From IMG/VR virus record IMGVR_UViG_2974787824_000001, positions 1 to 32,336 of that record: a DNA stretch of 32,336 nucleotides; one strand, given 5' to 3'. A program made the position numbers and the translations under genes. Source of the DNA: a virus (lineage: Duplodnaviria > Heunggongvirae > Uroviricota > Caudoviricetes > Peduoviridae). Below, in pieces: positions 1,198-32,141 of this stretch (position 1 is the first letter of the stretch; each line of letters begins with the position of its first letter). Under the pieces are notes generated by a model. That model had not been told where the DNA came from. It ran no database searches and saw nothing but the letters and a program-made list of their open reading frames with translations.

Positions 1198-2969
1198 CAG
1201 TAAAACTCCAGAATGGTGGATGTCAGCGGGGTGCTGATACCGGCGGTGAGTGGCTCATTTAACAGGGCGTGCATGGTCGCCCAGGCGAGGTCGGCGTGGC
1301 TGGCTTCCTCGCTGCGGCTGGCCTCATACGTGGCGCTGCGTCCGCTGCTGGTCATGGTCTTGCGGATAGCCATAAACGAGCTGGTGATGTCGGTGGCGCT
1401 GACGTCATATTCCAGACAGCCACGACGGATAACGTCTTTTGCCTTGAGCACCATTGCGGTTTTCATTTCCGGCGTGTAGCGGATATCGCGCGCGGCGGGA
1501 TAGAACGAGCGCACGAGCTGGAACACGCCGACACCGAGGCCGGTGGCATCAATTCCGATGTATTCGACGTTGTATTTTTCGGTGAGTTTGCGGATGGATT
1601 CTGCCTGGGTGGCAAAGTCCATGCCTTTCCACTGGTGACGCTCAAGTATTCTGAATTTGCCACCGGCCACCACCGGCGGTGCCAGCACCACGCATCCGGC
1701 GCTGTCGCCACGGTGTGACGGGTCGTAACCAATCCATACCGGGCGGGAGCCGAACGGATTTGCGGCAAACGGTGCATAGTCTTCCCATTCTTCCAGCGTG
1801 TCGACCATGCAGCGTTGCAGCTCCTCGAACGGGAACACCGACGCCTTGTCGTCAACAAATTCACACATGAACAGGTTTTTAAAATCGTCGGCGCTGTTTT
1901 CGCGTTTAAGCTGCTCAATGTCGAACAGCGTGCAGCCACCTTTCAGGGCGTCCTCAATGGTGACAATCTGCCGCCACTGGCCGTCTGCACAGAGAAGCCC
2001 ACCGGCAAGGGCGTTATGACTGACGTCGATTTCCACGCGTTCGGCGGCGCTGGCGCGTCCCCGGTTAAACAGTTCACCCGACCAGAACGGGTAGGCGTCG
2101 TGCGCCAGCGTGGACGGGGTGGAGAAATAGGTCGAGCGCAGGTGACTCTGTGAGGCCATACCTGATGCCACCTTACGCAGTACCTGAAAATTCGGGATCC
2201 AGAAAATCTCGTCGACGTACAGGTCGCCGTTATGGCTCTGTGCGGTGTTGGAGTTGGTGCCGAGAAAAATCAGTTTTGCGCCGTTATTGCCCAGGACAAT
2301 CGGGTCACCAGTCAGGTCAACGTCAACCAGCCGGGCAAAGGCGATGATGTATTCGCGGAACACATACGCCTGCGTTTTACTGGCCGACAGAAAAATCTGG
2401 TTATGGCCGGTTTTCAGGGCGCGCAGCAGCGCCTCGCGGGAAAAATAAAACGTCGCGCCAATCTGGCGGGATTTCAGGATATCGCGGATGCGGTGCTCAA
2501 GCCCGGCGCGATACCAGTGCAACTGATATTCGAAAGACTGCTCAAAGAAAATCTGCTCCAGCTTTTCGATGGCCTCGTCACTGAAAAAATTCTTTTTCGG
2601 TTTGCGACGCCCGCCTTTGTTGCGGTTAGCGACGTTCGGATTAAGGTCTGCCTCGTTGCCGGTCTGACTGTAGCGGTTGACCCGCGCCAGTCGTTCAATC
2701 TGGCGTCCCAGCAGGTCAATTTCCTTGAAGTCACCGCCGGTTTTCTGCGGTTTGATGATGAGCTGGGTCAGCCGCGCTTCCAGACTCATTTCGACACGGC
2801 TGATGGGGGCAACGCTGTCCCAGCCGTCGCGCTGCTTCCAGCTCTGCACCGTCGGGCGTTTCATCTGCAACATGGCGGCAATCTGCGGCACGGAAAATCC
2901 CTGCCAGTACAGCAGCGCCGCCTGACGACGCGGGTCGTGTAAAAGAGTGGTGTCTGTGGTGATGGTCAT
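1197..2969 (-). CDS. P: Terminase large (ATPase) subunit (P2 gpP-like)
   Basis: Long ORF divergent from O; start taken at the internal Met (MTITTDTT...), giving about 590 aa as I recall for P2 P; the ORF-track start at 2999 is probably a short N-terminal over-extension. Confidence 0.9.
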   Translation of the reverse strand: MTITTDTTLLHDPRRQAALLYWQGFSVPQIAAMLQMKRPTVQSWKQRDGWDSVAPISRVEMSLEARLTQLIIKPQKTGGDFKEIDLLGRQIERLARVNRYSQTGNEADLNPNVANRNKGGRRKPKKNFFSDEAIEKLEQIFFEQSFEYQLHWYRAGLEHRIRDILKSRQIGATFYFSREALLRALKTGHNQIFLSASKTQAYVFREYIIAFARLVDVDLTGDPIVLGNNGAKLIFLGTNSNTAQSHNGDLYVDEIFWIPNFQVLRKVASGMASQSHLRSTYFSTPSTLAHDAYPFWSGELFNRGRASAAERVEIDVSHNALAGGLLCADGQWRQIVTIEDALKGGCTLFDIEQLKRENSADDFKNLFMCEFVDDKASVFPFEELQRCMVDTLEEWEDYAPFAANPFGSRPVWIGYDPSHRGDSAGCVVLAPPVVAGGKFRILERHQWKGMDFATQAESIRKLTEKYNVEYIGIDATGLGVGVFQLVRSFYPAARDIRYTPEMKTAMVLKAKDVIRRGCLEYDVSATDITSSFMAIRKTMTSSGRSATYEASRSEEASHADLAWATMHALLNEPLTAGISTPLTSTILEFY

Positions 2970-3037
2970 GAATACCTCGCCGTGATGAATACACGGCAAG
3001 GCTACTGAGTCGCGCCCCGCGATTCGCTAAGGTGCTG

Positions 3038-3067
3038 TTGTGTCAGTGATAAGCCATCCGGGACTGA
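3038..3067 (+). promoter_or_regulatory. Candidate late-promoter activator element upstream of O
   Basis: 30-nt motif TTGTGTCAGTGATAAGCCATCCGGGACTGA about 76 nt upstream of the O start; 21 of 30 positions are identical to a motif upstream of FI (17666-17695). Confidence 0.45.
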
Positions 3068-3142
3068 TGGCGGAGGATGCGCATCGTCGGGAAACTGATG
3101 CCGACATGTGACTCCTCTAATCACTATTCAGGACTCCTGACA

Positions 3143-3997
3143 ATGGCAAAAAAAGTCTCAAAATTCTTTCGTATCGGCGTTGAGGGTGACACCTGTGACG
3201 GGCGTGTCATCAGTGCGCAGGATATTCAGGAAATGGCCGAAACCTTTGACCCGCGAGTCTATGGTTGCCGCATTAACCTGGAACATCTGCGCGGCATCCT
3301 GCCTGACGGTATTTTTAAGCGTTATGGCGATGTGGCCGAACTGAAGGCCGAAAAGATTGACGATGATTCGGCGCTGAAAGGCAAATGGGCGCTGTTTGCG
3401 AAAATCACCCCGACCGATGACCTTATCGCGATGAACAAGGCCGCGCAGAAGGTCTACACCTCAATGGAAATTCAGCCGAACTTTGCCAACACCGGCAAAT
3501 GTTATCTGGTGGGGCTGGCCGTCACCGATGACCCGGCAAGCCTCGGCACGGAATACCTGGAATTCTGCCGCACGGCAAAACACAACCCTCTGAACCGCTT
3601 CAAATTAAGCCCTGAAAACCTGATTTCAGTGGCAACGCCTGTTGAGCTGGAATTTGAAGACCTGCCTGAAAGCGTGTTCACCGCCCTGACTGAAAAGGTG
3701 AAATCCATTTTTGGCCGCAAACAGGCCAGCGATGACGCCCGTCTGAATGATGTGCATGAAGCGGTGACCGCTGTTGCTGAACATGTGCAGGAAAAACTGA
3801 GCGCCACTGAGCAGCGCCTCGCAGAGATGGAAACCGCCTTTTCCGCACTTAAGCAGGATGTAGCTGACAGGGCGGATGAAACCAGCCAGGCATTCACCCG
3901 CCTGAAAAACAGTCTCGACCACACCGAAAGTCTGACCCAGCAGCGCCGCAGCAAGGCCACCGGCGGTGGCGGTGACGCCCTGATGACGAACTGCTGA
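3143..3997 (+). CDS. O: Capsid scaffolding protein (P2 gpO-like)
   Basis: ATG at 3143 (MAKKVSKFFRIG...) gives 284 aa, the P2 O length as I recall; first gene of the rightward O-N-M-L capsid operon. Confidence 0.9.
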   Translation: MAKKVSKFFRIGVEGDTCDGRVISAQDIQEMAETFDPRVYGCRINLEHLRGILPDGIFKRYGDVAELKAEKIDDDSALKGKWALFAKITPTDDLIAMNKAAQKVYTSMEIQPNFANTGKCYLVGLAVTDDPASLGTEYLEFCRTAKHNPLNRFKLSPENLISVATPVELEFEDLPESVFTALTEKVKSIFGRKQASDDARLNDVHEAVTAVAEHVQEKLSATEQRLAEMETAFSALKQDVADRADETSQAFTRLKNSLDHTESLTQQRRSKATGGGGDALMTNC

Positions 3998-9414: not shown

Positions 9415-10200
9415 TTATGAGTGGTTTTTATTTGATGATTTGTATTCTACAACTTTTTTATTGGCGTAAAGGAATTTTGTATATGACAGAAGTATAACCA
9501 GACCTGAAGTGAAATAGACGAGGGATATTATTAATAATGTTTTTCTGTGGCTGTTATTATCTTTAATCTCCTGACTTAACCATTCGGAGTCCTCCTCGTT
9601 TAGCTGTAAGAGCTTATTGCAGGCGATTGCAGGAAGTGTGTCTGTTACAAAAGTGTTCTGCAGTCTCTTGCAATCGGCAATGCTAAAAGCTTTATAGAAC
9701 TTATCTGTTTTATTGTCGGAGAACAAAAGAACCTTGTCATTATAAACATGGTACATCATATTTTTATATGGTATGGCTATAGCATCCTCTACTATGGCAG
9801 ATTGCTCGTTGTGTATGCAACATGCGAAGGTAATATAAAGAATTCCGGCCAGGACTGCACTCATTGTTTTTGTGATGCATGGCGGTTCTGTTATGTCTCC
9901 CCAGAAGCGAGTAAGGAAAAAATCCGATGTTTTTAGTTTTCCATCAATCAACCCCTGCTGTATCATTTTCACATCTTTGATGCCTGATACATTGATTCCG
10001 TTAATTATTTTAAATAGTTGAATGTCGCGCCACTCGCGGTCCAGTCTTTTTAATTTTTTATCTGAATATCCAAATTTGAAATAATGTGCAATAAGCCTCA
10101 TAAGGTTACTTTTACCAAAGCTAAAAAATGCTAATACTACAAAGACCAAAAGATACAAGACGATTAGCTCCCACACATTAGTCACATTATAGCTGACCAT
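9415..10200 (-). CDS. Hypothetical membrane protein; AT-rich moron at the S/V (P2 orf30) position
   Basis: 261-aa leftward ORF between S and V. Hydrophobic stretches near the N-terminus (LIVLYLLVFVVLAFFSF), middle (MSAVLAGILYITFACCI) and C-terminus (TLLIISLVYFTSGLVILLSY). Visibly AT-rich with A/T-ending codons, unlike neighbours. No motif recognised. Confidence 0.7.
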   Translation of the reverse strand: MVSYNVTNVWELIVLYLLVFVVLAFFSFGKSNLMRLIAHYFKFGYSDKKLKRLDREWRDIQLFKIINGINVSGIKDVKMIQQGLIDGKLKTSDFFLTRFWGDITEPPCITKTMSAVLAGILYITFACCIHNEQSAIVEDAIAIPYKNMMYHVYNDKVLLFSDNKTDKFYKAFSIADCKRLQNTFVTDTLPAIACNKLLQLNEEDSEWLSQEIKDNNSHRKTLLIISLVYFTSGLVILLSYTKFLYANKKVVEYKSSNKNHS

Positions 10201-10283
10201 TACGCTCTCCTTGAATGTTGTCTGGTGGTTCTACAAATGAATCCAGATAGCATAACTTTTATATATTGTGCAATCTCACATGC

Positions 10284-10919
10284 ATGAACACTCTCGCAAA
10301 TATTCAGGAACTCGCGCGCGCACTGCGCAACATGATTCGTACTGGCCTTGTCGTCGAAACCGACCTTAACGCCGGTCGCTGCCGTGTGCAGACCGGCGGC
10401 ATGTGCACCGACTGGCTTCAGTGGCTGACACATCGTGCCGGGCGTTCGCGCACATGGTGGGCACCTTCCGTGGGGGAACAGGTGCTGATTCTGGCCGTGG
10501 GCGGTGAACTCGACACGGCGTTCGTTCTGCCGGGGATTTATTCCGGCGATAACCCCGCGCCGTCTGCGTCGGCGGATGCCCTGCACATACGTTTCCCTGA
10601 CGGGGCGGTGATTGAGTATGAACCTGAAACCAGTGCACTGATGGTAAGCGGAATTAAAACGGCCAGCGTGACGGCTTCTGATTCTGTTACCGCCACGGTG
10701 CCGGTAGTCATGGTGAAAGCGTCAACCCGCATCACCCTGGACACCCCGGAGGTGGTCTGCACCAACAGACTGATTACCGGCACGCTGGAAGTACAGAAGG
10801 GCGGGACGATGCGCGGCAACATTGAACACACCGGCGGTGAACTCTCATCAAACGGTAAGGTACTGCATACCCATAAACACCCCGGCGACAGCGGCGGCAC
10901 AACCGGGGGACCTCTATGA
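10284..10919 (+). CDS. V: Baseplate spike / assembly protein (P2 gpV-like)
   Basis: Start at the internal Met (MNTLANIQELARALRNMIRTG...) gives about 211 aa; sequence recognised as P2 V. Confidence 0.9.
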   Translation: MNTLANIQELARALRNMIRTGLVVETDLNAGRCRVQTGGMCTDWLQWLTHRAGRSRTWWAPSVGEQVLILAVGGELDTAFVLPGIYSGDNPAPSASADALHIRFPDGAVIEYEPETSALMVSGIKTASVTASDSVTATVPVVMVKASTRITLDTPEVVCTNRLITGTLEVQKGGTMRGNIEHTGGELSSNGKVLHTHKHPGDSGGTTGGPL

Positions 10920-12709: not shown

Positions 12710-15004
12710 ATGAGCACAAAATTCAGAACCGTTATCACCACTGCCGGTGCAGCAAAGCTGGCAGCGGCAACCGCACCGGGAGGGCGGAAGGTCAACATTA
12801 CCACGATGGCCGTCGGGGATGGCGGTGGTAAATTGCCTGTCCCGGATGCCGGACAGACCGGGCTTATCCACGAAGTCTGGCGACATGCGCTGAACAAAAT
12901 CAGCCAGGACAAACGAAACAGTAATTATATTATCGCAGAGCTGGTTATTCCGCCGGAGGTGGGCGGTTTCTGGATGCGTGAGCTTGGCCTGTACGATGAT
13001 GCGGGAACGTTAATTGCTGTGGCGAACATGGCCGAAAGTTATAAGCCAGCTCTTGCCGAAGGCTCAGGGCGTTCGCAGACCTGCCGCATGGTCATTATCG
13101 TCAGCAGTGTGGCCTCAGTGGAGCTGACCATTGACACCACAACGGTGATGGCGACGCAGGATTACGTTGATGACAAAATTGCAGAACATGAACAGTCACG
13201 ACGTCACCCGGACGCCTCGCTGACCGCAAAAGGTTTTACTCAGTTAAGCAGTGCGACCAACAGCACGTCTGAAACACTGGCTGCAACGCCAAAGGCGGTA
13301 AAGGCCGCATATGACCTTGCTAACGGGAAATATACCGCACAGGACGCCACCACAGCACGAAAAGGCCTTGTCCAGCTCAGTAGTGCCACCAACAGCACGT
13401 CTGAAACGCTCGCCGCAACACCAAAAGCGGTAAAAGCAGCATATGACCTTGCTAACGGGAAATATACCGCACAGGACGCCACCACAGCGCGAAAAGGCCT
13501 TGTTCAGCTCAGTAGCGCCACCAACAGCGATTCTGAAACGCTGGCCGCAACGCCAAAGGCGGTAAAGGTCGCGTATGACCTTGCTAACGGGAAATACACT
13601 GCACAGGATGCCACCACCGCGCGAAAAGGTCTTGTCCAGCTCAGTAGCGCCACCAACAGTGATTCTGAAACACTGGCCGCAACACCAAAAGCGGTGAAGT
13701 CTGCCTATGACAATGCTGAAAAACGTCTTCAGAAAGATCAGAACGGTGCGGATATTCCGGGAAAGGATACCTTCACGAAAAATATCGGTGCCTGTCGTGC
13801 TTATAGCGGCGCTTTGAGCACTGAAGCCGGAAACTGGACAACCGCTCAGTTTATTGAATGGCTGGATTCCCGTGGTGCATTTAATCATCCGTACTGGATG
13901 TGCAAAGGCTCCTGGTCATATGCAAATAACAAAATCATTACGGATACCGGATGTGGTGATATCCACCTGGCTGGTTGTGTCGTCGAGGTCATGGGAACAA
14001 AATCTGCAATCACTATTCGAGTGACCACGCCGACAACATCAAGCGGTGGCGGTACAACCAGCGCGCAATTCACTTACATTAATCATGGGGACGGCTACTC
14101 CCCCGGCTGGCGTCGTGACTGGAATCGTCAGGGCGACGCAATGACCGGAACGATTAATCAGGATGGCGGAAGCCAGAATGCCTATATGTCTACGGCCTTA
14201 TGTTCAGGCACCAGAGGCGGCAAAAAATATCTCAGAAAGTTTCGTGGTGGAGAAGGAGACACTATCTGGCATGAAACAGTGCAGGGCGGGGTAATTCGCT
14301 GGGCGACAGGAAACTATGACGCTCAGGAAGAATTATCACTCAGCTCCGCTTATGGTCTCCGTTCTAGAGGTGAAATTACATCACTCAGTGCTAATGGTCT
14401 GCGCATTGCTTATGGCAATTATGGATTCTTTATCAGGAATGATGGTGGCAGCACATATTTAATGCTGACGGCCTCTGGTGATAAATTTGGGACATGGAAC
14501 GGTTTAAGGCCGCTGACTATCAATAACGCTAATGGCGGAGTGTCAATGGGGCATGGCCTGAGTGTTACTGGTGATATTGCCTCAAGTACCAAAGTACGTG
14601 CCGGTAGCGGGAAAAAATTCACGGTCAGCAGCAGTAATACATCCACGAAGGAAGCCGCATTCAATTTGTGGGGAAACTCAAGTCGTCCGGTGGTGGCTGA
14701 ATTAGGTGATGATGCAGGCTGGCATTTTTACAGTCAGAGAAATACAGATAACAGCATCACTTTTGCTGTTAACGGTCAGGTATCACCATCTAACTATAGT
14801 AATTTTGATTCCCGTTATGTACGCGATATCCGGCTTGGGACTCGAGTTGTCCAGACCATGCAGAAAGGGGTGATGTATGAGAAAGCAGGGCACGTAATTA
14901 CCGGGCTTGGTATTGTCGGTGAAGTCGATGGTGATGATCCCGCAGTATTCAGACCAATACAAAAATACATCAATGGCACATGGTATAACGTCGCACAGGT
15001 GTAA
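12710..15004 (+). CDS. H: Tail fibre protein (P2 gpH-like) with expanded internal repeats and a divergent C-terminal receptor-binding region
   Basis: 764-aa ORF; conserved P2-like N-terminus (MSTKFRTVITTAGAAKLAAA...), internal 44-aa repeats, AT-richer C-terminal half. Longer than the roughly 669 aa I recall for P2 H. Confidence 0.88.
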   Translation: MSTKFRTVITTAGAAKLAAATAPGGRKVNITTMAVGDGGGKLPVPDAGQTGLIHEVWRHALNKISQDKRNSNYIIAELVIPPEVGGFWMRELGLYDDAGTLIAVANMAESYKPALAEGSGRSQTCRMVIIVSSVASVELTIDTTTVMATQDYVDDKIAEHEQSRRHPDASLTAKGFTQLSSATNSTSETLAATPKAVKAAYDLANGKYTAQDATTARKGLVQLSSATNSTSETLAATPKAVKAAYDLANGKYTAQDATTARKGLVQLSSATNSDSETLAATPKAVKVAYDLANGKYTAQDATTARKGLVQLSSATNSDSETLAATPKAVKSAYDNAEKRLQKDQNGADIPGKDTFTKNIGACRAYSGALSTEAGNWTTAQFIEWLDSRGAFNHPYWMCKGSWSYANNKIITDTGCGDIHLAGCVVEVMGTKSAITIRVTTPTTSSGGGTTSAQFTYINHGDGYSPGWRRDWNRQGDAMTGTINQDGGSQNAYMSTALCSGTRGGKKYLRKFRGGEGDTIWHETVQGGVIRWATGNYDAQEELSLSSAYGLRSRGEITSLSANGLRIAYGNYGFFIRNDGGSTYLMLTASGDKFGTWNGLRPLTINNANGGVSMGHGLSVTGDIASSTKVRAGSGKKFTVSSSNTSTKEAAFNLWGNSSRPVVAELGDDAGWHFYSQRNTDNSITFAVNGQVSPSNYSNFDSRYVRDIRLGTRVVQTMQKGVMYEKAGHVITGLGIVGEVDGDDPAVFRPIQKYINGTWYNVAQV
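13229..13711 (+). repeat. About 3.7 tandem copies of a 132-bp (44-aa) in-frame repeat inside H
   Basis: Repeat unit KG(F/L)(T/V)QLSSATNS(T/D)SETLAATPKAVK(A/V/S)AYDLANGKYTAQDATTAR, with copies starting at 13229, 13361, 13493 and 13625 (last one partial). Confidence 0.9.
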
Positions 15005-15007
15005 TTT

Positions 15008-15532
15008 ATGCAGCATTTAAAAAATATTACTGCGGGTAATCCAAAAACTGTTGCCCAATATCAACTGACAAAAAATTTTGATGTTATCTGGTTATGGTCC
15101 GAAGAGGGAAAAAACTGGTATGAGGAAGTAAGTAATTTTCAGGAAGACACGATAAAGATTGTTTACGACGAGAATAATATAATTGTCGGCATCACCAGAG
15201 ATGCTTCAACGCTTAACCCTGAAGGTTTTAGCGTTGTCGAGGTTCCTGATATTACCGCCAACCGACGTGCGGATGACTCAGGTAAATGGATGTTTAAGGA
15301 TGGTGCCGTGATTAAGCGGATTTATACGACAGACGAACAGCAGCAACTGGCAGAATCACAAAAGGCAACTTTACTTTCCGAAGCTGAATCCGTGATTTTG
15401 CCGCTGGAGCGCGCTGTCAGGCTGAATATGGCAACAGATGAGGAGCGCAGCCGACTGGAAGCATGGGAACGCTACAGCGTTCTGGTCAGTCGGGTGGATC
15501 CTGCAAATCCCGAATGGCCGGAAATGCCGTAA
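15008..15532 (+). CDS. G: Tail fibre assembly chaperone (P2 gpG-like)
   Basis: 174-aa ORF immediately after H; resembles the tail fibre assembly protein family of P2 and relatives, with the usual variable region. Confidence 0.8.
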
Positions 15533-15933
15533 TAAGTTGTATGATCTCTGGTGTGAGCTTACATATCTATAGCACAGAGTAAAGCCTAATCTGACAGTCC
15601 GCTATGTGCCAAGAGCGGACGTTGGTATGCAAGAGCCCTCCAAAAGTTGATGGTTGGTTTGCAGGGGGGCTTAAAGAAACTACACTTATCAAGTTGAAGT
15701 TCTGTATTCAGCGAAATCGTAGCACTCTGACGATAAGTAACTCCGGTACCCCGCTCTTCGATGAAGAACCAGAGTAATCCCCCCGAAAAACCAGCGCATC
15801 AAAATTGGATCTTCAGCGGTAGCTTATCGGCTATCGGAAGTACAGGTGTGAATTCGTGGTGAATTGCTTTGATAATAAACGATTAATACGGAAAAACGCA
15901 TTAATCATTTATTAGCTTTTAGTAAACCACAAT

Positions 15934-17283
15934 TTATTCCGTTTTATATATCATAGTAGTCGATTGGAGAATATAGTTTCTGGGAATGTATTCTTCAAAG
16001 TGTTCGTCCTTTTTAAATACATGAACTACATTTGGGAATAATTGATAGTCAACAGGGTGTATAGCGTTTGGATTATGGTACATGTATATGGCTGTACACC
16101 ATGGTTCTTGATAGTTAGGGTCACTTACATCGGCTGAAAATGGATGTGGGTCTGCATCCTGATCAGTTTTAACACCACTGACGTACACTTTGAATCCACT
16201 CGCCTCTACACCTGCAAGAATTCCCATCCGGTTAAACTTAGGTATGGTTGCTTGAGTAGTGAGTAAAACGGCAGAAACATAATTATTTTGTTCTGAGCCA
16301 AAAAAGTTCGACTTGATACTTCTATTTTCATCTGTATGTCTTTCAATAGAAATGCCTGACTCAATATCAATCCCGTACAAATAGCTATGCAAGGCTTCGC
16401 TTGAGAAGGCCATGGACATTCTTTTTGAATAATCCTGCATTGCTATGACAAATGGTTTGTTCTTTGTATGGTTGAGTTCCCAGTAATGAACTTTCTCTGG
16501 CTCAGGGCAATGCCGGACTTTTTTTAATAAACTTCTTGCAAACTTAAAAGGCATGACATTTAGAACATGTTTTCTTAATTCATCCATCTGCTCATCGTTA
16601 ATGACTTTTCTTTCAAGAGGGGCTTCTGCTTCAGCAATGCTTACAGCCTCTACAGCAATTTCCACTCCAAATTTAGATAGCAGAAAATCTGGTTGATTGT
16701 ATTCTCTATTCATTTCAAAGTCGAGTTCATAAAATACAGCGTTCAAATATAATTCAAATAGCCTTGAATTAAATGCATCACTTTGAAAATCCCTTATAAA
16801 TATTCCATCAGGATCTTTGAACCAGTATGCAAGTTCCTCAAGAACAATATATGCAGGGAAATGAAGAGGGTCTTCGAGGAGCATTTTTATATAAACATTC
16901 CTTTTTTTCTCTGGGACTTTACTCAAGAATAATGAAAAAGGTTTGGTTGATTCATCGCCTTGCATGAATGTACCGTTTTGGTGCTGCGCCAGCATCTTTG
17001 GTATGTCATCGTTTAAATTATTAAGCAAGACATCCATTGAGTCAAATGAAGCCAAGACGTTTATTGCTCTGAATTTTTTATCTAAATCCCGACCCAATAC
17101 TATTGCGTTAAAATCTTTATCAATATTGCATATGATTATTGTGGATAACAATGTTATCCCATTCCCCTCATATTTAAACCAGCGTATCTCCTCAGAAAAT
17201 GTCTTAAGGTAAGGTGAGCGACCGTAAAAATAAATATCAAATTGTTCTTTGCTGATCTCACTGAAGTGTAATCCTGCGTTCAT
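15934..17283 (-). CDS. Hypothetical protein; AT-rich cargo gene at the G/FI (Z/fun) position - candidate anti-phage defence protein
   Basis: 449-aa leftward ORF interrupting rightward late genes, flanked by about 400 bp and 470 bp of non-coding DNA; AT-rich. No Walker A, HUH, reverse-transcriptase or obvious nuclease motif seen by eye. Confidence 0.75.
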   Translation of the reverse strand: MNAGLHFSEISKEQFDIYFYGRSPYLKTFSEEIRWFKYEGNGITLLSTIIICNIDKDFNAIVLGRDLDKKFRAINVLASFDSMDVLLNNLNDDIPKMLAQHQNGTFMQGDESTKPFSLFLSKVPEKKRNVYIKMLLEDPLHFPAYIVLEELAYWFKDPDGIFIRDFQSDAFNSRLFELYLNAVFYELDFEMNREYNQPDFLLSKFGVEIAVEAVSIAEAEAPLERKVINDEQMDELRKHVLNVMPFKFARSLLKKVRHCPEPEKVHYWELNHTKNKPFVIAMQDYSKRMSMAFSSEALHSYLYGIDIESGISIERHTDENRSIKSNFFGSEQNNYVSAVLLTTQATIPKFNRMGILAGVEASGFKVYVSGVKTDQDADPHPFSADVSDPNYQEPWCTAIYMYHNPNAIHPVDYQLFPNVVHVFKKDEHFEEYIPRNYILQSTTMIYKTE

Positions 17284-17405
17284 ACCAATTCCTTTTCAAT
17301 GAATAATTGGCCTTTAGGAGTGATTCCCTTTGTCTTTAATTCAGTTCTAACTAGTTCTTTAATCCAATAGCCTAAGCTCATCATGCAGTTGGATCATAAG
17401 ACAAC

Positions 17406-17434
17406 GCCCTATAGTGCTCGTGATACTATAGGGC
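17406..17434. promoter_or_regulatory. Palindromic hairpin upstream of the 449-aa cargo gene (candidate operator or insulator)
   Basis: Perfect 10-bp inverted repeat GCCCTATAGT (17406-17415) / ACTATAGGGC (17425-17434) with a 9-nt loop, about 120 bp upstream of the cargo start on the minus strand; no flanking T-run. Confidence 0.35.
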
Positions 17435-17665
17435 ATCTGACCACACTGTTAACTGGAGTAACGACTATGGCAGGAATATAGCATAACCAAACTCACTCCA
17501 AACTTACATAGCGCTTTCTGGCCGTGAGCATAACAAGGCCCACTCCTCGCTCAAAGCAGACTGTCAGATTTGATAGCGTTTTGGCTATGTAAATTGTCAG
17601 TCGGGAAATAAGTGAGTGCAAATCAGGACAGGCGAGCGAATTGCCCGCCTTTTCTTTACCGGTGG

Positions 17666-17695
17666 TTGTGCTGTCGATTAGCCAACCGGGACAAA
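17666..17695 (+). promoter_or_regulatory. Candidate late-promoter activator element upstream of FI
   Basis: TTGTGCTGTCGATTAGCCAACCGGGACAAA, about 63 nt upstream of the FI start; shares TTGTG-N5-GAT-N-AGCCA-N-CCGGGAC with the element upstream of O. Confidence 0.45.
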
Positions 17696-17757
17696 TAGTC
17701 TGACATCTCGGGTACAACTGAAAATACCACTCACCCATTAACCACGGAGTTAAACGG

Positions 17758-18948
17758 ATGAGTGACTATCATCATGGCGTGCAGGTGCTGGAGATTAACG
17801 ACGGCACCCGCGTCATTTCCACCGTATCCACGGCTATTGTCGGCATGGTCTGCACGGCCAGCGATGCGGATGCGGAAACTTTCCCCCTCAATAAACCTGT
17901 GCTGATTACCAATGTGCAGAGCGCAATTTCAAAGGCCGGTAAAAAAGGCACGCTGGCGGCATCGTTACAGGCCATCGCTGACCAGTCAAAACCGGTCACC
18001 GTTGTCGTGCGTGTGGAAGACGGCACCGGCGAAGACGAGGAAACGAAACTTGCGCAGACCGTTTCCAATATCATCGGCACCACCGACGAAAACGGTCAGT
18101 ACACCGGACTGAAAGCCCTGCTGGCGGCGGAGTCGGTAACCGGTGTTAAACCGCGTATTCTCGGTGTGCCGGGACTGGATACCAAAGAGGTGGCTGTTGC
18201 ACTGGCATCCGTCTGTCAGAAGCTGCGCGCTTTCGGATATATCAGCGCATGGGGCTGTAAGACCATTTCCGAGGTGAAAGCCTACCGCCAGAATTTCAGC
18301 CAGCGTGAGCTGATGGTCATCTGGCCGGATTTCCTCGCATGGGATACGGTCACCAGTACCACCGCCACCGCGTATGCCACCGCCCGTGCGCTGGGTCTGC
18401 GCGCTAAAATCGACCAGGAGCAGGGCTGGCATAAAACGCTGTCCAACGTCGGGGTAAACGGTGTTACCGGCATCAGCGCATCTGTATTCTGGGATTTGCA
18501 GGAGTCCGGCACCGATGCTGACCTGCTTAACGAGTCAGGCGTCACTACGCTGATTCGCCGCGACGGTTTCCGATTCTGGGGTAACCGTACCTGCTCTGAT
18601 GACCCGCTGTTCCTCTTTGAAAACTACACCCGCACCGCGCAGGTGATGGCCGACACGATGGCTGAGGCGCACATGTGGGCGGTGGACAAGCCCATCACCG
18701 CAACGCTGATTCGCGACATCGTTGACGGCATCAATGCCAAATTCCGTGAGCTGAAAACAAACGGCTATATCGTGGATGCGACCTGCTGGTTCAGCGAAGA
18801 ATCCAACGATGCGGAAACCCTCAAGGCCGGAAAACTGTATATCGACTACGACTATACACCGGTGCCTCCTCTTGAAAACCTGACCCTGCGCCAGCGTATT
18901 ACCGATAAATACCTGGCAAATCTGGTCACCTTGGTTAACAGCAATTAA
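17758..18948 (+). CDS. FI: Contractile tail sheath protein (P2 gpFI-like)
   Basis: 396-aa ORF; sequence recognised as P2 FI. Confidence 0.93.
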   Translation: MSDYHHGVQVLEINDGTRVISTVSTAIVGMVCTASDADAETFPLNKPVLITNVQSAISKAGKKGTLAASLQAIADQSKPVTVVVRVEDGTGEDEETKLAQTVSNIIGTTDENGQYTGLKALLAAESVTGVKPRILGVPGLDTKEVAVALASVCQKLRAFGYISAWGCKTISEVKAYRQNFSQRELMVIWPDFLAWDTVTSTTATAYATARALGLRAKIDQEQGWHKTLSNVGVNGVTGISASVFWDLQESGTDADLLNESGVTTLIRRDGFRFWGNRTCSDDPLFLFENYTRTAQVMADTMAEAHMWAVDKPITATLIRDIVDGINAKFRELKTNGYIVDATCWFSEESNDAETLKAGKLYIDYDYTPVPPLENLTLRQRITDKYLANLVTLVNSN

Positions 18949-24575: not shown

Positions 24576-25571
24576 TTATGGACGCATTATGGACATTCCT
24601 GACACCGGGTTAAGAGTCACTGCATCTTGTAAGAAATCCGGTGCAAAGTGTGCGTAGGTCATAGTTTGCTGAATGTTAGAATGACCCAGGATGCGCTGCA
24701 ATGTGATTATGTTACCTCCATTCATTATAAAATGTGTGGCAAATGTATGCCTCAAAACATGCACTGCCTGTCCGTCAGGTAAATCGGGTTTTACTTCCCT
24801 GAGAGCGTTACGCACTTTGTAGTAACTGGCATTAAAAAGCCTGCCTGAATTTTTGGTCTTGATCCGTTTAATCAGGTCCTGCGAAACGGGAATTGTCCTG
24901 CGCTTTCCGTTTTTAGTTTTCATAAACGTAACCATCTGGTTAATGATGTGTTCAGCTTTTAAATTAGACACTTCACTCCAGCGTCCACCAGTAGAAAGGC
25001 AGACCAGAGTCGCATTTAATTCATCACCATCAAGCATGGATAACAGCCGCGTAATCTCTTCACTGGACAAAAAAGCCATTTCTGTAACAGCTTCACGTAA
25101 CCGCTTAACCTCACGGAACGGGTTGTGAGAGTGGTATTCACCGGCGTCAATTAACTTGGTGAACATCCCGCTCATTATTGCCAGATGCCGATTTACGCTG
25201 GCTGGTTTTAGACCATCGTTCATCATTACAACGCGATAATCAGTTATCGTTTTCTTTGTTAGCTGGTCAGCTCTGGACACTCCCATTTCTGCAAATTTGG
25301 CGATTATTGTCGTTAAACGCCCCCGTTCAATATCTCCACGCTCATGTGATTTTCCGTGATATATCCACCATCTGCCTAACAACTCTGTAAGAGTTCGGCG
25401 GTCGGCTGGTTTCTCCAGCCACTCTTTGTTGTGGTAGTTAACCAGTACATGACGTTCGAATGCTTGAGCTTCACCTTTAGTTTTAAATTTCCGCCTGATA
25501 CGTTTTCCATCTGCACCCTGCGGTCTGACGTCCACTTCATAACGACCATCATCGAGCTTTTTAATAGACAT
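24576..25571 (-). CDS. int: Tyrosine integrase (P2 Int family, diverged from P2)
   Basis: 331-aa leftward ORF; N-terminus MSIKKLDDGRYEVD... resembles P2 Int; C-terminal catalytic region has HVLRHTFATH (HxxR) and a Tyr in ...QTMTYAHFAP. Confidence 0.92.
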   Translation of the reverse strand: MSIKKLDDGRYEVDVRPQGADGKRIRRKFKTKGEAQAFERHVLVNYHNKEWLEKPADRRTLTELLGRWWIYHGKSHERGDIERGRLTTIIAKFAEMGVSRADQLTKKTITDYRVVMMNDGLKPASVNRHLAIMSGMFTKLIDAGEYHSHNPFREVKRLREAVTEMAFLSSEEITRLLSMLDGDELNATLVCLSTGGRWSEVSNLKAEHIINQMVTFMKTKNGKRRTIPVSQDLIKRIKTKNSGRLFNASYYKVRNALREVKPDLPDGQAVHVLRHTFATHFIMNGGNIITLQRILGHSNIQQTMTYAHFAPDFLQDAVTLNPVSGMSIMRP

Positions 25572-31199: not shown

Positions 31200-32141
31200 T
31201 TAAGTTAATTTTAATGAATGGTACTCTATCGAGCTGATTGTAGATGCGATATATTTACGATCATTTACAGAGAGTATTGCCGCTAGTAGACGACATACCA
31301 GAGCCTGCATTTGTAGCAATATATCGCTACCATATTGACAATCATTGATACTAGAGAAACCAAGCGGTTGCCCATTAAAAATGGCTTCATGAAAATTATC
31401 ATTGCGTATAACTGAAACATTACATTCATCTGTTGCCCATGACGGGATTTTTACACCGTAATTTTCGCACATCCAATATACTCTATTTTGATGAGATGGT
31501 TTTTTCTCTTTAATGACTTTATCCCTTTCATCCCATGCTATAGCAAAACAGCAATCAAGAGCCATATAAAGATACTGGAATTTCTCAAAGGAAAGGTATA
31601 GTGGGTTATGTGATAGGAATAGGGAGTGTATCACCGCAGCTATTCTTTTAATGGAGCGATCATCTTTTTGTTTGTCTTTTATATAGTTAAGTGCTAGCTC
31701 TATTACTTCTTTTTCAGAGCATCCAACGAGAATAAAGTCAGTTAACTTAGTGGGCTTGATAGTGGTTGCATCAAGAAAACCAGCGTCAGTGGTTGTCAAT
31801 CTTATACCCTTGAAAAAAGAGAGGCACCACACAACAAAGTTGAGAGTTTCTAACGAGGATGTGTTTTTTAATTTTAGTGTGTGCGTTTTGGGCATGCCGA
31901 ATACTCGGTAACTATAAGGCATTGTGCATGTGTCACCATTAAGGTTATATACCTTTCGATTCCCAGGGTATATCCAACCATTAACAACGTTTTTATCATT
32001 GTTAATACGTTCCACTTTCTCAATAAGACCGGGTAAAGTACGCAAAGAAAATTGTTCAGTCTCAATGTTAACTTCTACTGGATAGTATCCAAACTCCGAA
32101 ATAATCTCATTTGGTTGCTGTTCATCAACTTCACCTTGCAT
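31200..32141 (-). CDS. Hypothetical protein; AT-rich cargo gene at the tin/old position - candidate anti-phage defence protein
   Basis: 313-aa leftward ORF next to the right genome end, where P2 carries tin and old. AT-rich with A/T-biased codons. No Walker A motif, so not an Old-type ATPase; no motif recognised by eye. Confidence 0.75.
   Translation of the reverse strand: MQGEVDEQQPNEIISEFGYYPVEVNIETEQFSLRTLPGLIEKVERINNDKNVVNGWIYPGNRKVYNLNGDTCTMPYSYRVFGMPKTHTLKLKNTSSLETLNFVVWCLSFFKGIRLTTTDAGFLDATTIKPTKLTDFILVGCSEKEVIELALNYIKDKQKDDRSIKRIAAVIHSLFLSHNPLYLSFEKFQYLYMALDCCFAIAWDERDKVIKEKKPSHQNRVYWMCENYGVKIPSWATDECNVSVIRNDNFHEAIFNGQPLGFSSINDCQYGSDILLQMQALVCRLLAAILSVNDRKYIASTISSIEYHSLKLT

Follow-up and report, generated by a model that had tools for sequence, protein, structure and literature searches.

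The window analysed here, a 32,336-nucleotide (nt) sequence of a P2-like phage (IMG/VR record IMGVR_UViG_2974787824_000001) that is 100% identical to Yersinia phage VB-YPM-4 (ON146439) over positions 15001-18000, contains at 15533-15933 a non-coding interval of 400 bp that borders an anti-phage defence gene. The interval lies directly downstream of the gene for the tail-fibre assembly protein G (15008-15532, + strand; Caudo_TAP, 2.8e-34) and upstream of that for the sheath protein FI (17758-18948, + strand; sheath domains), the same order as on the P2 map, and the locus is the classic Z/fun cargo position of P2. The cargo, on the minus strand at 15934-17283, is the defence gene PD-T7-1 (PADLOC PDLC04073), whose 449-aa product aligns with the full length of the PADLOC model (E 1.5e-156; residues 8-447 against profile positions 2-448 of 452), matches no Pfam family and is on record with exactly this sequence in phage VB-YPM-4 only. 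A first-pass annotation had described the interval as free of open reading frames (ORFs) and of moderate GC content, and both descriptions hold: no ORF reaches 60 aa, the longest being one of 57 aa on the + strand at 15604-15777, and the GC fraction is 0.445-0.485 over 15500-15899 versus 0.31-0.43 in the cargo gene. With a probability of about 75%, the interval is a patchwork comprising (i) P2 backbone, (ii) a boundary hairpin, (iii) filler, (iv) a stump of an alpA-family gene, and (v) a 3' hairpin, and not an RNA gene. As an observation the interval is real but mostly ordinary; the boundary hairpin is its one element of wider interest.

Two homologies of different distribution divide this DNA. 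The spacer past the G stop codon (15533-15596, + strand) is 90-98% identical in P2 and in many P2-like phages, whatever their cargo, and lies outside the homology to non-P2 cassette contexts, which begins further in. In BLAST comparisons with E. coli genomes and phages, the P2-type homology covers 15533-15624 (bases 1-92 of the interval) and is found in hundreds of P2-like prophages and phages carrying any cargo. About 200 E. coli genomes and phage mEp460_ev081 share the stretch 15597-15933 (bases 65-401) with 98-99% identity, in a lambdoid context, and Morganella phage IME1369_01 has it at 93.6%. The two homologies overlap exactly by the hairpin at 15597-15620. The second belongs to a 1,966-bp cassette (15597-17562) in which PD-T7-1 is accompanied by 337 bp of non-coding DNA and by the 279 bp upstream of the gene, and which recurs in lambdoid prophages over 15597-17562 at 99% identity and in IME1369_01 over 15591-17574 at 95.8%; P2 backbone homology resumes at 17532-17543. 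Altogether, the PD-T7-1 cassette occurs between at least eight different pairs of flanks, including P2-like phages, lambdoid prophages and the Morganella phage.

A hairpin marks each end of the cassette. The left boundary hairpin (L, 15597-15623) reads GTCCGCT-ATGTGCCAAG-AGCGGAC followed by GTT and forms the left joint between backbone and cargo, and the right boundary hairpin (R, minus strand, 17538-17561) reads GTCTGCT-TTGAGCGAGG-AGTGGGC and forms the right joint. They are embedded in an imperfect inverted repeat of 43 nt (15588-15630 and 17528-17570, 79% complementary), each arm of which carries its own hairpin with a 7-bp stem and a 10-nt loop; in P2, both arms are present around fun(Z). 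The L hairpin (15597-15620) had been reported, correctly, by the first-pass annotation. About 0.2 perfect 7-bp hairpins are expected by chance per 400 bp (own arithmetic), and the element derives its meaning from recurrence elsewhere rather than from its single occurrence here; it is the most meaningful element of the interval, although not for the reason given earlier.

The stretch 15792-15872 (+ strand) corresponds to the C-terminal ~27 codons of an alpA-family gene, 22 of 26 residues (85%) being identical to the C-terminus of the intact 77-aa AlpA in the collected sequence L020, itself a match to Pfam PF05930 at 8e-15. Against that profile the stump scores 20.7 bits, with a curated cutoff of 21, and covers positions 31-51 of 51. 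It is assigned as a pseudogene fragment because no homology lies upstream of 15792, a complete AlpA reading frame with the N-terminal DNA-binding part being absent; because it contains an internal TGA (15849-15851); and because RefSeq labels the homologous stretch an incomplete helix-turn-helix/AlpA gene without N-terminus. The internal stop arises from a G>A substitution specific to the window, which turns the alpA codon TGG into TGA where all relatives read GTGGATT, and owing to this change the duplication of GTGAATT exists only in this lineage. The repeat had been annotated as a short tandem array; the two copies are there (15848-15854 and 15859-15865), with a period of 11, and are not strictly tandem.

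Native PD-T7-1 loci suggest where the stump originated. In L020, whose PD-T7-1 protein is 86% identical, a P4-type integrase is followed by an intact alpA convergent on PD-T7-1, and the same convergent arrangement of alpA is found in the native loci of four lineages with 64-87% protein identity. Those at 83%, 72% and 64% identity share the arrangement with an integrase gene, which one Serratia assembly carries across PD-T7-1, on its opposite side, and the other two lack within 3 kb; further on, a D5-type primase is encoded in L149 and L152. A gene of 59-77 aa usually stands directly upstream of native PD-T7-1, with a weak HicB match in two of the P0003 contigs. These native loci indicate that PD-T7-1 comes from integrase-alpA islands, and that the stump is a relic of that home.

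Between the stump and PD-T7-1, an AT-rich hairpin of 18 bp occupies 15873-15914, 19 nt past the PD-T7-1 stop codon. On the PD-T7-1 sense strand (dG -18.7 kcal/mol, z -4.9) its stem is uninterrupted thanks to G-U pairs, and substitutions in relatives convert its mismatches to pairs. Every native locus has a strong hairpin at this intergenic site, of different sequence, a pattern that is typical of a terminator between convergent genes. The tail on the + strand is GCUUUUAG, and that on the minus strand is not U-rich. The element probably marks a transcript end or acts as a bidirectional terminator, and would stem from the convergent PD-T7-1/alpA pair; it would end or stabilise the PD-T7-1 transcript and would also halt late-operon read-through from G. 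The earlier suggestion that the interval is the 3' untranslated region (UTR) of the cargo gene is thus plausible for 15873-15933 only, ~60 nt past the stop codon and including this position-conserved hairpin, and does not extend to the rest.

The remaining stretch, 15621-15791, is cassette-internal filler with no detectable function, which diverges in a neutral-like manner and preserves neither a fold nor an ORF. Its identity among relatives tracks that of the third codon positions of the adjacent gene (95.0 versus 93.5% in IME1369_01, here L004, and 85.0 versus 86.4% in L019), and it appears to drift neutrally. The runs of G and C noted in the first pass, GCAGGGGGGC from 15661 and AATCCCCCCG from 15776, are present as described and both fall within the filler (G-run at 15664-15669, C-run at 15779-15784); in the alignment of relatives, the two runs do not covary, the length of the C-run varies by slippage indels, and L019 breaks the G-run while its C-run gains bases. 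Native PD-T7-1 loci lack 15597-15791 altogether. A piece of the filler, 15707-15772 (63-66 bp), resembles, with 86-89% identity, sequences situated ~155 bp upstream of umuD on plasmids of Rahnella and Klebsiella (L021 3001-3063; L022 3001-3066). As a separate observation, umuDC sits just outside the R hairpin of the PD-T7-1 cassette in IME1369_01 (L004 7095-8773).

Several candidate features of this stretch were rejected. The 57-aa ORF at 15604-15777 is frameshifted in 4 of 7 relatives and was discarded as a gene, the relatives being either frameshifted or without the ATG. A stop-free minus-strand frame over 15597-15800 yielded, in tblastn searches against plasmids and phages, only the relatives already known at the DNA level. 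A suspected decayed internal R-type hairpin near 15698-15724 gave an alignment score inside the shuffled range, and a scan for tRNA and tmRNA, run in search of an att-site relic, found nothing.

Taken together, the components suggest the following history. PD-T7-1 would normally reside in integrase-alpA-primase islands, where it faces alpA in convergent orientation across a terminator hairpin; its capture between L and R hairpins would have brought along that hairpin (15873-15914) and the final ~27 alpA codons (15792-15872), together with ~170 bp of unrelated DNA (15621-15791) that may now be drifting neutrally.

The boundary hairpins extend well beyond PD-T7-1. The exact L hairpin occurs at no fewer than 119 sites in IMG/VR, and 144 collected sequences contain 291 hairpins of two flavours, namely L (loop TGTGCCA) and R (loop TGAGCGA). 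Neighbouring hairpins mostly follow each other as L and then inverted R, delimiting 83 units of 0.4-5.8 kb with 43 unrelated cargo types. The backbones of these units include the lambdoid hotspot after the DUF977 gene (24) and the P2 G-FI hotspot (at least 27), with further contexts in the Morganella phage, a plasmid and several other backbones; the Rac prophage of E. coli K-12 has no such hairpin. In a search with the arms only, the loop is 10 nt long in 272 of 314 matches, and nearly all of them show the centre GTGCCA or GAGCGA or one mismatch from it. Among ten cargo proteins scanned with PADLOC, three matched protease-, TIR- or PDC-type defence models; other cargo proteins resemble transporters, regulators or hydrolases on inspection only, with no family scan. 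The cassettes also form arrays, in which an R hairpin, 17-18 nt and an L hairpin constitute the joint, and P2-EC48 (AJ512681, L003) carries three ORFs with an R hairpin at the end of each.

Side observations on these arrangements include a recurrent unit of ~66 bp at the array joint (L135 3126-3191, L036 1321-1386, L052 13872-13937), whose spacer of 17-18 nt resembles CTTYAGCTCAGTTAYCTY. In the lambdoid prophages L012, L014-L016, L028, L114 and L127, a further hairpin-bounded cassette stands on either side of the PD-T7-1 cassette, the four hairpins reading R+ R+ L- L- in gene orientation, which may show a stepwise build-up of arrays. The 9 bp that flank L and R on their outer sides in P2-like phages (AATCTGACA / TGTCAGATT) form inverted repeats themselves.

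The joint between backbone and cargo can be placed within the hairpin itself. On the cargo side, sequences are unrelated immediately after the hairpin and an RTT triplet, with more than 40 continuations and a collapse of information content, and on the outer side a few backbone types dominate. The R hairpins, which were outside the pattern by which sequences were fetched, differ only at positions 16-24 when the backbone is the same and the cargo different, and mainly at positions 1-8 when the cargo is the same and the backbone different. The outer arm thus follows the backbone and the inner arm the cargo, which places the joint in the hairpin centre, with the switch between positions 8 and 16. 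In the hairpin stems only one-sided changes are found, with no compensatory pairs, and the L/R element behaves, given these uncompensated changes, as a conserved sequence with dyad symmetry rather than as a generic hairpin.

The L and R hairpins may accordingly be pictured as recombination spots at which cargo is swapped between genomes, with one crossover in L and the other in R. Each site would be a 24-bp element whose 7-bp inverted arms enclose a conserved centre (L, GTGCCA; R, GAGCGA), and an exchange in the hairpin centre would leave the outer sequence with the backbone and the inner sequence with the cargo. How the exchange takes place admits several explanations. Recombination over 24-34 bp of near-identity would give the same breakpoints as a dedicated recombinase, and short-homology exchange at elements conserved for that or another reason takes up most of the probability left after a recombinase and a transposon have been allowed for. 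One form of it, less likely than not, holds that some other task, for instance the insulation of cargo transcription or the binding of a host protein, keeps the hairpins conserved, exchange being a by-product of short homology. The hairpins do stand where operons end, behind G and behind the DUF977 gene; their 24-34 bp of near-identity are near the minimum for homologous recombination, which is roughly of that length; and RecET or Red-type functions occur in the cassette's lambdoid hosts, with an exonuclease gene nearby. On the other hand, the hairpins lack U-tracts, and a consensus scan called a terminator-like stem at the R hairpin (17561-17538) and none at the L hairpin; the loop sequence and exact length are as conserved as the stem, which a plain hairpin would not need; and L and R retain distinct centres and always the same orientation to each other.

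A further, tentative possibility is that L and R are heterospecific core sites for a putative site-specific recombinase, encoded by host or phage. Their architecture, with 7-bp arms, a 10-nt interval and an invariant 6-mer, is compatible with the core site of such an enzyme and not specific to it; together with the differing centres and the constant inverted arrangement, it is as expected for a cassette-exchange system. L would then recombine only with L and R only with R, and whole cassettes could be swapped in one step among unrelated phages, prophages and plasmids. The sole recombinase in the window is a P2-type integrase (24576-25571), and no transposase or recombinase was evident inside the larger cassettes when their ORFs were inspected by eye.

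That L and R are the terminal inverted repeats of a non-autonomous transposon, a mobile insertion cassette served by a transposase in trans, is unlikely. The imperfect terminal inverted repeats of 43 nt would suit it, as would the existence of discrete units with many cargoes in several target backbones and in tandem. Nevertheless, no direct repeats indicative of target-site duplication occur at the junctions inspected in the window, L001, L004 and the arrays; the outer arm co-varies with the backbone, unexpected if the whole repeat moved with the element; the hotspot already has this hairpin when it carries other cargo; and the larger cassettes show no transposase.

As to the interval itself, the proposal of a non-coding RNA gene, or of a long structured 3' UTR, acting with or regulating PD-T7-1, which the first-pass annotation had raised as a small RNA partner of the cargo protein, has very little probability left. 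It draws on the presence of the 337 bp beside PD-T7-1 in all cassette copies and on folding, since the 401 nt as a whole fold better than shuffled sequences (z -3.3 on the + strand, -2.85 on the minus strand) and a long-range G6:C6 helix between the G-run and the C-run is predicted. The fold signal stems, however, from two hairpins, 15597-15620 and the AT-rich 15873-15914, the latter absent from the first-pass annotation, and the middle 236 nt (15631-15866) are not significantly structured (z -1.9 and -1.1). The G6:C6 helix was rejected as not conserved in relatives, with L019 disrupting one run and lengthening the other, and RNAalifold found no covariation among the relatives (covariation term +1.0, double changes in 2 of 89 pairs). 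The Rfam 15 cmscan of 15000-18000, with E up to 10, returned five weak matches, all in the coding gene and none in the interval, and the divergence equals that of third codon positions. Native loci at 64-87% identity carry alpA at this place, without 15597-15791. Finally, the validated PD-T7-1 clone spans 2138-3835 with the gene at 2183-3533, leaving flanks of 45 and 302 bp (Vassallo et al. 2022, Supplementary Table 2, PMC9519451); the cloning strategy implies that the long side is the promoter side, in which case defence would not need the filler.

The idea that the interval is a leftover of P2 Z/fun after replacement by PD-T7-1 can be practically dismissed: the interval does fill the Z/fun position between G and FI, but similarity to the P2 G-Z interval stops at target base 91, within the boundary hairpin, tblastn of P2 Fun(Z) yields only E >=4, and the remainder matches, with 99% identity, lambdoid prophages that lack Z/fun. 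The broader notion of a decayed coding sequence holds for the alpA stump.

Several points count against the patchwork and its boundary elements as described. The 337 bp of non-coding DNA are co-transferred with PD-T7-1 in every cassette copy, which a function would likewise predict, and the copies are mostly 95-99% identical, the neutrality test leaning on few substitutions, chiefly those of L004 and L019. The hairpin 15873-15914 has no U-tract on the PD-T7-1 sense strand and was not called by the consensus terminator scan, and the published clone's 45-bp flank is no more than the presumed 3' side of the gene. With regard to the L/R elements, the uncompensated stems may act as folded single strands or as duplex sites, and the apparent conservation of the L set is biased by the exact pattern used to collect it.

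Repeats at this position are already known in the Z region of P2. An article by Nilsson, Karlsson and Haggard-Ljungquist (Mol Biol Evol, 2004) reportedly refers in its title to site-specific recombination. GenBank records of P2-like Z regions from 2003 (AJ512676-AJ512685) annotate inverted repeats, and window positions 15506-15624 are 97.5% identical over 119 bp to AJ512681 1-119, where a 'left inverted repeat' is annotated at 3-115; that phage, P2-EC48, carries the same pair of L and R partners. The likeness comprises the same G-FI position, the same sequence and an inverted partner beyond the cargo. What goes beyond the annotation is the presence of the same hairpins at the lambdoid hotspot, in the Morganella phage, on a plasmid and in arrays, and the mapping of the joint to their centre. 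As a detail of the record, its 'right inverted repeat' (3166-3256) differs from the actual partner of the left repeat, at 3774-3809.

Other known systems share part of this architecture. Phage morons, said to have been described by Juhala et al. in 2000 as independent cargo units with their own promoter and terminator, resemble the cassette in having an AT-rich cargo gene against the late operon, a promoter-like site, a 3' hairpin and a place between essential gene blocks; the moron concept, however, includes no defined shared boundary sequences, whereas the cassette has conserved 24-bp ends. Integron cassettes are similar in their promoter-less or single-gene cargo, the short imperfect palindrome at the boundary (attC) and the formation of arrays. 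They differ in possessing one attC of 57-141 bp per cassette, in direct orientation, with RYYYAAC/GTTRRRY cores and an adjoining intI, whereas here two 24-bp sites are inverted, with a flank consensus of RTT only, and the window contains no integron integrase. The dif modules of Acinetobacter plasmids and engineered cassette exchange with heterospecific lox or FRT sites both use two inverted short sites with arms around a centre of 6-8 bp, and the differing centres of L and R (GTGCCA versus GAGCGA) parallel the heterospecific sites; the L/R hairpins show no resemblance to the dif sequence. Mobile insertion cassettes and elements like miniature inverted-repeat transposable elements (MITEs) likewise have terminal inverted repeats around passenger genes and no transposase inside, but the cassette differs from them in the lack of target-site duplication and in an outer arm that follows the backbone.

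A 2026 survey of P2/P4 defence hotspots in Nucleic Acids Research (NAR) treats the transfer of defence genes between P2 and unrelated mobile elements as unresolved, weighing transposons, homologous recombination and illegitimate recombination, and reports pseudogene remnants, small and intergenic, as a frequent feature of such hotspots, a description that the alpA stump fits. Boundary repeats are unmentioned in the recent work on P2 hotspots (Rousset 2022, Egorov 2024 and the 2026 NAR survey), and a full-text literature search for the hairpin sequence found no relevant paper. The recurrence of the inverted repeats across phage families thus appears not to have been noted in those papers; together with the mapped joint, it extends what is known for the P2 Z region and would need confirmation. 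One PD-T7-1 cassette between the same 24-bp hairpins in P2-like, lambdoid and Morganella phages, together with 43 cargo types, offers a testable handle on the transfer question, and the hairpins provide a practical marker for delimiting cargo units and finding new cargo genes. The heterospecific-site explanation, if true, would represent a natural counterpart of recombinase-mediated cassette exchange, defence genes included. Conversely, a partner RNA of PD-T7-1 is not worth seeking in the interval, which is mostly debris.

Elsewhere in the window, the minus-strand ORFs at 31200-32141 (313 aa), 9415-10200 (261 aa) and 10200-10586 (128 aa) have no Pfam or PADLOC match; the first, judging from its position in the window, may fall in the other P2 cargo region, and no L or R hairpin occurs there.

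Upstream of PD-T7-1, the cassette-internal region at 17284-17537 (minus strand) comprises a promoter-like site and a palindrome. The consensus scan placed -35/-10 elements at 17452-17425 on the minus strand, and window positions 17377-17512 match L020 3605-3742, which in L020 is the promoter region upstream of a gene of the ribbon-helix-helix (RHH) type. That gene is one of three 64-aa genes found upstream of PD-T7-1, in L020 (3783-3977, RHH/HicB-like), L149 (2793-2987, weak HicB) and L152 (2785-2979, no family on record), the RHH/HicB assignment resting on L020. The cassette of the window is devoid of the small gene, yet keeps the promoter region formerly upstream of it. A perfect 9-bp palindrome, CCCTATAGT-N9-ACTATAGGG, at 17407-17433 overlaps the predicted -10 of PD-T7-1 (TATAGT, minus strand) and may be an operator left from a lost upstream regulator gene.

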